From Promethearchaeota archaeon (GTDB lineage: Archaea; Asgardarchaeota; Lokiarchaeia; Sigyniarchaeales; SOKP01), in contig JAFGGO010000078.1 in the NCBI GenBank assembly GCA_016930515.1, positions 1 to 26,939 on the forward strand: a stretch of 26,939 bases of DNA, read 5' to 3'. This document shows, piece after piece, positions 1,027-4,086 of the stretch. Position numbers and translations under genes: made by a program. The notes below the pieces were generated by a model. That model saw nothing but the letters and a program-made list of their open reading frames with translations. It was not told the DNA's origin and ran no database searches. Each line of letters begins with the position of its first letter. Position 1 is the stretch's first letter.

Positions 1027-1407
1027 TTGTTTAAAATATCATTTACCCAAAGCGCATTGGATTACATTTGCGAACAGCGTTCTCTCTCTCAAGAAGAATT
1101 ATCAGAATCTAATCTCGTCGTGGCGATCTTTGCCTATGATTCCTCTACGTGAACGACTTTTTTCTGCGGAAATGTTCTTGAACTCGTAGAAAAATACAAA
1201 GTATTGGAAGATTATCCCGAATTCATTCAGTGGTTCGACTCTGAAAGAAAAATGGATTTCGAAGTTTTTGTAGAAAAAGAAGTTCTTTACGAATATAAAA
1301 AGTCGGGAACAAACCTCTTATTAATTGACGCCGTCGTTAGCGAATCAAACGGAAAAAAATACGGAATGCTGTTCTTTAAAAATTCAAATCAGACAACCTA
1401 TGGCTAA
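1027..1407 (+). CDS. Putative selenoprotein A (126 aa, Sec42, U-x4-C motif), HesB/IscA-like N-terminus
   Basis: The frame runs from TTG 1027 through one in-frame TGA (1150-1152) into the 67-aa track ORF: MFKISFTQSALDYICEQRSLSQEELSESNLVVAIFAYDSST-U-TTFFCGNVLELVEKYKVLEDYPEFIQWFDSERKMDFEVFVEKEVLYEYKKSGTNLLLIDAVVSESNGKKYGMLFFKNSNQTTYG. It is homologous on both sides of the TGA to the gene at 3733-4086, and a SECIS follows the stop codon. Confidence 0.85.
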
Positions 1408-1445
1408 AATGAACTGGCCTTATAAACGCTAGAAGGTTAGCGATT
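1408..1445 (+). promoter_or_regulatory. Eukaryote-like (Asgard-type) SECIS element of selenoprotein A
   Basis: AAUGAA-CUGGCCUU-AUAAACGCUAG-AAGGUUAG-CGAUU. It has a UGAA/CGAU non-Watson-Crick quartet with tandem G.A/A.G, an 8-bp helix and an apical AA motif, and begins 1-2 nt after the TAA stop. Confidence 0.85.
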
Positions 1446-1546: not shown

Positions 1547-3499
1547 TCATGTGGATAAGTTTCTCGTGTAATTTAATTTCCCGCCCGCTATAATAATTTC
1601 TTTTTCCCGCTCAGATAAGTCGTGAACCATCTCAATCTCAAGAGAACGAGTTTTGTTAGATACCACGATGGATTTTTTTTTGTCTTCTAAGGAATTTTTA
1701 ACATTTAAAATCTCAAGTTTGTCGTCCTGTTCTAGCTTATCGAAATCGCTCGGATTGACGAAAATCAAGGGCAGGATGCCGAAATTTATCAAGTTGTCCC
1801 GATGGATTCTGGCAAAAGATTTCGCTAATATCACTTTAACGCCTAAATACATCGGTGCCAAGGCTGCGTGTTCTCTGCTGGATCCTTGGCCGTAATTTTC
1901 TCCCCCTACGATTGTCCCTGTTGCGCCTGAGTTTTTTACTTCAAGAGCTCTCGAAGAAAAGGTGGGATCCACCTGTTCAAACGCGAATTCACTAATCTTG
2001 GGCAAGTTTGACCTGAACGGCAAAATTTTAGCTCCTGCTGGTATGATGTGGTCTGTAGTAATATTGTCTTCGACTTTTATGAGCACCTTGATTTTAGCAA
2101 GATCGCTTGGCAAAGAAGCTACATCGGGCAATAGGGCAATGTTTGGACCTCTTACAATCTCGATTGCGCTTCCATCGCTTGGAGGATCGACTATCAACGA
2201 ATCGTCGATGTTAATGATATCTGGAAGCTTAACCGAAGGATAATTTCCAAGTTTTCGGGGATCCGTCAACTTGCCAAAGATTGCCGCTGCGACAGCCGTT
2301 TCGGGGCTTGATAGATATATATTCGCTGATTTTGTTCCGCTCCTACCAAAAAAATTGCGATTAAATGTACGCACCGAAGTTCCATTAGTTTTAGGAGCAA
2401 ATCCCATTCCAAGGCAGGGACCACAAGCACATTCTAAAATTCGCGCTCCTGCGGAAATGATGCTCGTTAAAGCACCATGTTTTATAAGTTCGAGCAATAC
2501 CTGTCTTGAACCTGGGGATATCCCTAAAGTCGTGTTATCGTGGACCTTTCTGCCTTTAAGAAGCTCTGCAACTAGGAGCATGTCTTTCAAGGAACTGTTG
2601 GTACACGAACCGATTGCAACTTGATTTACCACGACATTTTCTACTTCGGACACGGGAGAAACATTACCCGGAGAGTGAGGCCTTGCCACGAGTGGAACTA
2701 CCTCTGAAAGTTCGATCTCGATAACCTTGTTAAAATCGGGTTCAGGACCCATCTTGAGCTCGATCCATTGGTCTTCTCTACCTTCCAACTTCAGAAACTC
2801 TCGCGTGACATCGTCTGAGGGAAAAATAGAGGTCGTGGCGCCCGTTTCTGCACCCATATTAGCTATCGTTGCTCTTTCTGGAACGCTTAAAGATTTAACA
2901 CCGTCTCCAAAATATTCAAGAATGTATCCTAATCCACCCTTCACGTCGATCCTGCGAAGGATTTCTAATATCACGTCTTTTGCGGAGACAAAATCTCCAA
3001 GAGTTCCATTGAGCTTTATCCCCATTATTTTTGGAACTTTCATGAAGAACGGCCCTCCACCCATTGCCACCGCAACATCTAATCCCCCAGCGCCAATAGC
3101 AATAGCTCCCATTCCACCAGCCGTGGGCGTGTGAGAATCGGACCCAATCAAGGTTTTTCCTGGACGGGCGAATCGTTCCAGAAATACTTGGTGGCAAATG
3201 CCGTTTCCAGGTCTCGAAAACTTGATTCCGTACTTCGCAGCCACGGAAGCAAGATAGGCGTGATCGTCGGCGTTCTTAAAATCCGCTTGAAGAGTGTTGT
3301 GATCGACGAAGGAAACCGATAATTCGGTCTTTACTTTACTCAATTTCATTGCCTCGAACTGAAGATAGGCCATTGTACCCGTGGCGTCTTGAGTAAGGGT
3401 GTGGTCAATCTTTATTCCTACTTCCTCGCCTAGCTCGAATTGTCCTTCAACCAAGTGCTCTTTTAAAATCTTTCGTGCAATTGACATGCTAAGTTGCAT
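1547..3499 (-). CDS. acn: Aconitate hydratase (single-chain, about 650 aa, archaeal/Aquifex-type aconitase)
   Basis: 'TQDATGTMAYLQF', 'DHN', 'GNGICHQ', 'GSDSHT', Fe-S ligands in 'GSCTN' and 'CACGPCLG', swivel domain 'TTDHI' and 'NYGQGSSREHAA'. Start is probably ATG 3499 or 3487; stop is TGA. Confidence 0.93.
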   Translation of the reverse strand: MQLSMSIARKILKEHLVEGQFELGEEVGIKIDHTLTQDATGTMAYLQFEAMKLSKVKTELSVSFVDHNTLQADFKNADDHAYLASVAAKYGIKFSRPGNGICHQVFLERFARPGKTLIGSDSHTPTAGGMGAIAIGAGGLDVAVAMGGGPFFMKVPKIMGIKLNGTLGDFVSAKDVILEILRRIDVKGGLGYILEYFGDGVKSLSVPERATIANMGAETGATTSIFPSDDVTREFLKLEGREDQWIELKMGPEPDFNKVIEIELSEVVPLVARPHSPGNVSPVSEVENVVVNQVAIGSCTNSSLKDMLLVAELLKGRKVHDNTTLGISPGSRQVLLELIKHGALTSIISAGARILECACGPCLGMGFAPKTNGTSVRTFNRNFFGRSGTKSANIYLSSPETAVAAAIFGKLTDPRKLGNYPSVKLPDIINIDDSLIVDPPSDGSAIEIVRGPNIALLPDVASLPSDLAKIKVLIKVEDNITTDHIIPAGAKILPFRSNLPKISEFAFEQVDPTFSSRALEVKNSGATGTIVGGENYGQGSSREHAALAPMYLGVKVILAKSFARIHRDNLINFGILPLIFVNPSDFDKLEQDDKLEILNVKNSLEDKKKSIVVSNKTRSLEIEMVHDLSEREKEIIIAGGKLNYTRNLST

Positions 3500-3677
3500 C
3501 AAATATTTTATCGTAAGTAATTAAACTAAATGCTCTATCGTTAAAATTTTTTCCTAGCGTTCAGTTAATATTGAAAAAAAGGAAAATTTGCATTATATTG
3601 TAAGAGTTTCGCTCTAACATGACAAAAACGAGAATTTACTAAAGAAGAAAAAAAAATTGAAAACCGTGGCGTTCGGA

Positions 3678-3715
3678 AATCACCATCCTTCCATCATTTA
3701 CAAGGGCGGGTCATT
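3678..3715 (-). promoter_or_regulatory. Eukaryote-like (Asgard-type) SECIS element of selenoprotein B
   Basis: Minus strand AAUGAC-CCGCCCUU-GUAAAUGAUGG-AAGGAUGG-UGAUU. Geometry is identical to 1408-1445 (quartet, 8-nt arms, 11-nt top with AAA); the AUGA begins 18 nt after the stop codon. Confidence 0.85.
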
Positions 3716-3732
3716 TTTTTTGTTGTATTGAT

Positions 3733-4086
3733 TTATGCTCCGATATTTACCACTAACGACGTTTGTGACTTGCCCCATCTCTTCCAAGTTTTTGCGTCAA
3801 TAACGACATCTGTTTCGTGTCCTCCGAATCGCCTTACGATGACGGTATCTACGAACACATCAACTCCCGTCTGTTGCAACTCTTTTCCGTCCTCCCACCG
3901 ATTAAATCGCTCGTGATTGACAACCTCGTCCCTGCGCACTAATTGGGCAATATCGTTACAGTAAATTCGGGATCAAGAGCGAGTCTCGTGCTGGTAGATG
4001 GCCAGAACCAAATCGTTTGTACCGTCTACTGCTTTTTTCTGCTCTTGAATGTAGTTCAAAGCTTCTTGAGTGAGCTTGATTTTCAT
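3733..4086 (-). CDS. Putative selenoprotein B (117 aa, Sec38, U-x4-C motif), paralog of 1027-1407
   Basis: ATG at 4086, one in-frame TGA at 3975-3973, continuing into the 68-aa track ORF: MKIKLTQEALNYIQEQKKAVDGTNDLVLAIYQHETRS-U-SRIYCNDIAQLVRRDEVVNHERFNRWEDGKELQQTGVDVFVDTVIVRRFGGHETDVVIDAKTWKRWGKSQTSLVVNIGA. GGTGA RBS upstream and SECIS downstream. Confidence 0.87.

Follow-up and report, generated by a model that had tools for sequence, protein, structure and literature searches.

The closest described relative of the element analyzed here is the lokiSECIS, which Mariotti 2016 (PMC4989117) presents as a 9-bp stem flanked directly by AUGA on its 5' side and by GA on its 3' side and capped by an 11-nt loop that favors A at its first five positions. 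In the same description, the last position of the loop is an ultraconserved G that mostly follows an A. Huang 2024 (PMC11227280) generalized this element into the eSECIS-like type I of Asgard archaea and describes such structures behind 1224 Asgard selenoprotein genes. The model given there accepts a stem of 7 to 15 bp with at most two mismatches and a loop of 8 to 20 nt, and it includes a lower stem and an internal loop; that source also states that lokiarchaeial stop codons often abut or overlap the AUGA. As described in Huang 2024, the Asgard selenoproteome was built by homology to known families together with Sec/Cys pairs, and a 2026 review gives the same seven selenoprotein families for Asgard archaea.

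Here we analyzed a hairpin of this kind in a 26,939-nt stretch of contig JAFGGO010000078.1 (Promethearchaeota archaeon, assembly GCA_016930515.1), the whole of which we call the window. Neither the type of SECIS nor its site relative to the stop codon is new, since both were described in the two papers cited above.

RESULTS

A lokiSECIS hairpin adjoins the stop of a UGA-interrupted gene

The hairpin lies immediately behind a gene interrupted by a single in-frame UGA, and the two are laid out as follows:

1027 to 1407, + strand: selenoprotein gene, TTG start, 126 codons, UAA stop (translation with TGA as U; orthologs)
1150 to 1152, + strand: in-frame UGA (codon 42), very probably read as selenocysteine, 259 nt 5' of the AUGA; invariant in 34 aligned copies
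1409 to 1412, + strand: AUGA, 5' half of a kink-turn-type core; aligns to the AUGA of covariance model R1 (see below)
1413 to 1421, + strand: helix II, 5' arm, 9 positions (covariation in orthologs)
1422 to 1432, + strand: apical loop of 11 nt with an A-rich 5' side and an AG end (ortholog conservation; signature of Mariotti 2016)
1433 to 1441, + strand: helix II, 3' arm (covariation in orthologs)
1442 to 1443, + strand: GA, 3' half of the core, then a conserved UU (ortholog conservation)

Read from 1409 to 1443 on the + strand, the element thus consists of AUGA, a 9-nt arm, an A-rich 11-nt loop with an AG end, a second 9-nt arm, and GA. Positions 1414 to 1421 pair with 1433 to 1440 in eight pairs, two of which are G-U, and only 1 nt separates the UAA stop (1405 to 1407) from the AUGA. 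An earlier sequence-only reading had described the same letters, the same eight pairs including two G-U, the AUGA and GA core, and a start 1 to 2 nt past TAA, all of which hold. The window copy is slightly degenerate, since the first of the nine stem positions (A1413/C1441), paired in most orthologs, is an A/C mismatch and since the loop starts with AUAAA instead of AAAAA, leaving four A residues among its first five positions.

The TTG start at position 1027 is preceded by GGTGA at 1019 to 1023. Both in the window and at orthologous loci, the TGA of this ribosome-binding site is often in frame and shortly precedes the ORF. At the point where the protein alignment starts, a canonical start codon is missing from several orthologs.

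The gene belongs to a family in which the TGA is invariant

Outside the source assembly, the gene was found in 52 of the 134 other genomes of the same lokiarchaeial family, each match having exactly one in-frame TGA; beyond that family, a search among 400 genomes of the phylum gave one weak match only. The TGA occupies the same aligned codon in every one of the 34 aligned copies (orthologs and paralogs), and the only invariant columns of this alignment are U42, C47, and F66, the first two forming a U-x4-C motif. The invariant cysteine near the selenocysteine fits a selenenylsulfide redox or metal-binding site, as judged from the motif. A cysteine-containing ortholog, looked for as a control for the element, was detected neither among the 400 genomes of the phylum nor among 1.84 billion representative proteins. 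Database entries for the protein are either C-terminal fragments starting just past the TGA or full-length sequences with W at its position, this W being the TGA read under another genetic code.

The window contains a second member of the family with its own element:

3733 to 4086, - strand: paralogous selenoprotein gene, TGA at 3975 to 3973, same U-x4-C motif (alignment; genome comparison)
3680 to 3714, - strand: second lokiSECIS with 9/11/9 geometry, 18 nt past the UAA stop of the paralog (second-best R1 match in the window)

The paralog lies upstream of an aconitase-family gene (1547 to 3502) on the same strand, and the two paralogs are tandem neighbors in several other genomes.

Searches of Pfam and NCBIfam with the protein gave no significant match, the best E values being 0.045 and 0.1, both for unrelated families, and the protein-family profile had no match among PDB sequences at an E value of 10 or below. 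The name "selenoprotein A" used in the sequence-only reading is that reader's label for the first of the two paralogs and does not denote GrdA; identity with GrdA, the selenoprotein A of glycine reductase, was rejected, no Pfam or NCBIfam family being significant.

The same element follows other selenoprotein genes of the genome

The source assembly (4.0 Mb, 35% G+C, 94% complete) was searched with a strict pattern composed of (A/G)UGA, a 9-position stem with at least eight pairs, an 11-nt loop with at least four A residues among the first five positions and a final G, and GA or AA. The pattern occurred seven times in the 4.0-Mb genome, while 20 shuffled genomes gave a mean of 0.35 and a maximum of 2 occurrences, and all seven elements sit just past ORFs with an in-frame TGA. 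For the six elements other than the one at 1409 to 1443, the offset between stop codon and element is -4 to 87 nt; according to Pfam, their TGA-containing ORFs are SelD (AIRS domains), three FlpD/VhuD genes, HdrA, and one ORF without a family match.

We built the covariance model R1 from those six elements alone, leaving out the element of the window, and ran it unfiltered on the two strands of the window. The best match was 1407 to 1445 (+), with 22.7 bits and an E value of 0.0012 for the window search, followed by 3678 to 3716 (-), with 21.6 bits and an E value of 0.0024; the next match reached only 11.9 bits. In a search of the whole genome, scores comparable to 22.7 bits have E values of about 0.13 to 0.15, so that the window score alone is only marginal genome-wide. 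The two top matches are convincing because both lie directly behind TGA-containing paralogs, not by score alone. The window element agrees with the lokiSECIS and type I descriptions in its core, in the size of stem and loop, in its loop bases, in its place behind a TGA-containing gene, and in its match to R1.

Two further loci of the genome were recorded in this survey. At C43:4375-4896 (locus L058), an ORF that matches no Pfam family contains three in-frame TGAs, arranged as U-G-U-U, and its TGA stop doubles as the UGA of the AUGA in a perfect 9/11 lokiSECIS. At C67:38889-38930 (-), a further likely SECIS scores 23.3 bits with R1; its loop is longer, and both hairpin 2 and a clear helix I (see below) are present. 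No ORF of at least 50 codons ends just upstream, and the gene served may therefore be very short, VhuU being one possibility.

Structure and position of the hairpin are conserved across orthologs

Among 30 aligned ortholog elements, compensatory changes were seen at nine of the nine stem pairs, and 95.2% of the helix II cells were paired, compared to 48 to 59% when the partner column was slid. In the same alignment the TGA of the core is invariant and the A preceding it nearly so, the loop AAA and the terminal UAG vary little or not at all (the consensus loop starting with AAAAA), and helix II is followed by an invariant G, A, and first U and a nearly invariant second U. The sequence-only reading had extended helix II by A.G, U-A, and A-U pairs up to an AACGC loop; the orthologs do not bear this out, since just 6 of the 30 could form the U-A pair and no covariation was seen at the A-U pair.

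We inspected 59 gene copies for the element, three of which end at contig borders without a readable 3' flank. In 53 of the 56 others the element was found automatically, its offset from the stop ranging from -4 to +42 nt with a median of 4 nt, and in the remaining three it is present with either a point variant in the core (AUAA, ACGA) or 45 inserted nt in the loop. The check that the earlier reading had called for, namely, whether the hairpin stands behind TGA-containing orthologs, thus came out in its favor. The distance from the UGA to the AUGA ranges from 227 to 288 nt in 52 copies, and the 259 nt of the window equal the median.

Some otherwise intact elements have an altered core tetranucleotide: AUGU at loci L019, L022, and L036, AUAA at L040, and ACGA in the L027 paralog. 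As AUGU is common to three species, these cases suggest that it is tolerated. At locus L049, 3' of 424 to 741, the SECIS has an apical loop enlarged by about 45 nt of inserted sequence but retains both of its arms as well as the A-rich 3' portion of the loop.

These data bear on two readings in which the hairpin would have no part in decoding. That it is a chance structure has in its favor the folding energy of 1390 to 1475, which is unexceptional (z = -0.96). The probability of this is nevertheless close to nil in view of the seven occurrences compared to 0.35 expected, the covariation at 9 of 9 pairs, and the presence of the element in every ortholog with a readable 3' flank. Alternatively, the hairpin could be a generic 3'-end structure, a terminator or an mRNA-stability element without a recoding role, as its location at the 3' end of the gene and the T-rich tracts past the structure in many orthologs might indicate. 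We consider this extremely unlikely: AUGA, GA, and an AAA...UAG loop would not stay invariant in a hairpin of that sort, nor would it match a model of the SECIS elements of SelD, VhuD, and HdrA or be confined to TGA-containing ORFs.

Taken together, the element at 1409 to 1443 combines the geometry of a lokiSECIS with strong structural conservation, strict co-occurrence with a conserved in-frame TGA, and a match to the SECIS model of its own genome. It is, with high probability, a working lokiSECIS in the very short 3' UTR of the 126-codon gene, directing the UGA at 1150 to 1152 to be read as selenocysteine.

The source genome uses selenocysteine and also uses TGA as a stop

The assembly encodes SepSecS (377 bits) and a PSTK-like protein and contains TGA-containing SelD, VhuD, and HdrA genes, which indicates that the genome uses Sec. 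TGA is at the same time a normal stop here, as the aconitase gene at 1547 to 3502 ends in TGA, and several orthologs of the selenoprotein gene likewise terminate at a TGA stop.

A tRNA-Sec was not found in the 94%-complete assembly by ARAGORN, run with and without introns, by Rfam RF01852, or by a custom scan for a 9-bp acceptor and UCA, which yielded no credible candidate. The matches to RF01852 were rejected as tRNA-Sec and correspond to tRNA-Ser(GCU), an intron-containing tRNA-Ser(CGA), tRNA-Leu, and other tRNAs. The Loki tRNA-Sec described in Mariotti 2016 (PMC4989117) has a T-loop intron, and the failure to find the gene may be explained by such an intron, which would mask it from the detectors used, or by the incompleteness of the assembly.

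We also weighed whether read-through or recoding places an amino acid other than Sec at the UGA, the hairpin merely stimulating read-through, or whether the locus consists of two genes or a pseudogene. Gene callers do split the gene or give W for the TGA, and the missing tRNA-Sec points the same way. Against this, in 52 genomes the protein is conserved across this codon, which is TGA without exception; TGA serves as an ordinary stop both in the genome and in orthologs of the same gene; the Sec machinery is present together with known selenoprotein genes carrying the same element; and the invariant Cys of the U-x4-C motif suits a selenocysteine partner of the kind proposed above. Such a non-Sec reading is therefore very improbable, and decoding as selenocysteine remains by far the preferred interpretation.

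The hairpin is probably part of a three-way junction

The unconstrained minimum free energy (MFE) structure of 1390 to 1475 is a three-way junction made up of a 9-bp helix I, the SECIS hairpin, and a small hairpin 2. The additional parts are the following:

1395 to 1403, + strand: helix I, 5' strand, inside the last codons of the ORF (free MFE folds; ortholog pairing)
1460 to 1468, + strand: helix I, 3' strand (free MFE folds; ortholog pairing)
1447 to 1456, + strand: hairpin 2, with a 3-bp stem (1447 to 1449 with 1454 to 1456) and a 4-nt loop, on the 3' side of the internal loop (ortholog covariation)

In orthologs, hairpin 2 usually has a CGG/CCG stem and a UUGYG-like loop. Its cells are paired in 93% of cases, compared to 35 to 49% in slid controls, and all four pairs examined across the 30 orthologs show compensatory changes. 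In line with this, the 32 nt past the GA have a mean folding energy of -5.0 kcal/mol in orthologs, compared to -2.1 kcal/mol for a control stretch 60 nt further on. For helix I, 77% of the cells are paired, compared to 33 to 57% when slid (30 orthologs), and one pair shows a compensatory change from U-A to C-G in six sequences. RNAalifold did not call helix I on the ortholog alignment, and we tested it explicitly by pair counts instead. Helix I is the helix with the weakest support, in part because its 5' strand encodes the conserved C terminus. The six elements of the R1 set adopt the same three-way-junction fold without constraints, and each is followed by a hairpin 2.

T-rich tracts lie 3' of helix I in many orthologs and also behind the elements of the known genes. 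Because these tracts follow the 3' strand of helix I, they suggest that transcripts end right past the junction.

To the sequence-only reading, the element looked like a minimal SECIS, a single hairpin nearly devoid of helix I. The published description of the lokiSECIS accords with this in that it names only a 9-bp stem and a loop (Mariotti 2016, PMC4989117), and a fold of 1400 to 1500 alone shows no helix I. That fold excludes the 5' partner of helix I, and it is because this strand is cut off that the hairpin itself is not returned there either. A fold that takes in the last codons has as its free MFE structure the junction with its 9-bp helix I, and the six known-gene elements behave likewise; 1395 to 1403 pairs with 1460 to 1468 in orthologs as well, well above the slid controls, and a second, conserved hairpin with its four compensated pairs is enclosed. 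A single hairpin as the complete SECIS is thus rather unlikely. The functional unit is probably larger, namely, the three-way junction of helix I, the SECIS hairpin, and hairpin 2. The main texts of Mariotti 2016 (PMC4989117) and Huang 2024 (PMC11227280) mention neither a three-way junction nor an extra hairpin.

The protein is predicted to adopt an IscA/HesB-like fold

An AlphaFold2 model computed from the 34-sequence alignment had a pLDDT of 80.7. When it was compared to known structures with Foldseek and VIA-align, the top seven matches were all chains of the IscA/SufA/HesB fold, with Z scores from 8.2 to 4.8, after which the score dropped to 3.2. The best match, 1r94_A, had a Foldseek E value of 1.4e-4 and a Z score of 8.2, with an rmsd of 3.4 over 97 aligned residues. 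The protein is therefore predicted to have an IscA/HesB-like fold.

At the level of sequence, the link to IscA/SufA (PF01521) and to the HesB-like selenoproteins (TIGR01911) is not significant, whereas the predicted fold is alike. TIGR01911 had no match in the whole genome at an E value of 10 or below, and the best match of PF01521 (Fe-S_biosyn) in the genome was the paralog, with an E value of 0.108 and 14.5 bits, below the cutoff of 26.3 bits. IscA-type carriers have a pair of cysteines in their C-terminal part, while the present protein has no cysteine there and carries the U-x4-C motif instead.

DISCUSSION

The element described here is a genuine SECIS. The hairpin in itself will not surprise a specialist, because its type has been known since 2016 and 1224 Asgard genes with it were cataloged in 2024; its interest is moderate and comes from the family that it serves, which is unlisted, and from the three-way junction, which recurs throughout the genome.

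As to the family, its motif occurs in none of the selenoprotein sequence files of Huang 2024 (PMC11227280), and the gene family is missing from the published Asgard selenoproteome, as represented by these files and by the families listed in the 2026 review. The hairpin thus flags a conserved selenoprotein family that has Sec in every copy found, is represented by two paralogs in the window, and is restricted to one lokiarchaeial family. If this holds true, a Sec-only family without Cys relatives would escape selenoproteome surveys that are based on homology.

As to the mechanism, the AUGA and GA would pair to form a kink-turn, which could be recognized by a putative adaptor factor or by the archaeal Sec elongation factor. 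By analogy with the 3'-UTR SECIS elements of archaea and eukaryotes, Sec-tRNA(Sec) would thereby be delivered to the ribosome at the UGA at 1150 to 1152. Given the position of helix I and the AUGA at the stop codon, a ribosome that terminates there would have to unfold the element, while a ribosome at the UGA would leave it intact. We put forward, as a tentative proposal that may well need revision, that the working lokiarchaeial SECIS is a three-way junction in which hairpin 2 is the docking site of a putative archaeal SECIS-binding factor and the overlap of helix I with the stop lets the terminating ribosome reset the element, and that it marks a Sec-only family of IscA/HesB fold without Cys relatives. 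With every lokiSECIS of this genome appearing in the same three-way junction, the lokiarchaeial element would come closer to the eukaryotic order of helix I, internal loop, core, and helix II, and the junction offers a concrete target in the search for the archaeal SECIS-binding factor.

Comparison with known SECIS elements

Among archaeal elements, the SECIS of Methanococcales and Methanopyrus shares with the window element its 3' UTR site near the stop but is characterized by a GAA_A bulge and a G+C-rich upper stem, both of which are absent here; a search for the GAA_A bulge pattern in 1375 to 1560 gave 0 matches. The VhuD elements of Methanococcales and Methanopyrus also carry AUGA...GAC, as described in Mariotti 2016 (PMC4989117).

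The sequence-only reading had classed the element as a eukaryote-like SECIS, which is supported by the AUGA/GA core, the A-rich apical loop, and the location in the 3' UTR adjoining the stop codon, and had proposed scoring it with eukaryotic SECIS models, among others, which do not fit: cmscan gave no match to any Rfam SECIS family at an E value of 10 or below over 900 to 1700 (801 nt) or 1385 to 1480 (96 nt), with chance-level matches only. With form 1 of the eukaryotic SECIS (RF00031) the element has in common an AUGA_GA quartet able to form tandem sheared G.A pairs, unpaired A residues in the loop, the 3' UTR site, and the order of helix I, internal loop, core, and helix II. It differs from form 1 in the extra hairpin on the 3' side of its internal loop, and the eukaryotic stem is longer than the 9-position helix II of the lokiSECIS (Mariotti 2016, PMC4989117). 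The same paper reports that SBP2 was not found in Lokiarchaeota.

The lokiSECIS is the nearest counterpart, with the same AUGA, 9-position stem, 11-nt A-rich loop with an (A)G end, GA, and site directly past the stop. The window element departs from it by AUAAA in place of AAAAA in the loop, by the A/C mismatch at the first stem position, and by UU after the GA, where the elements behind VhuD and HdrA have C; and the gene that it serves belongs to none of the seven families listed for Asgard archaea.
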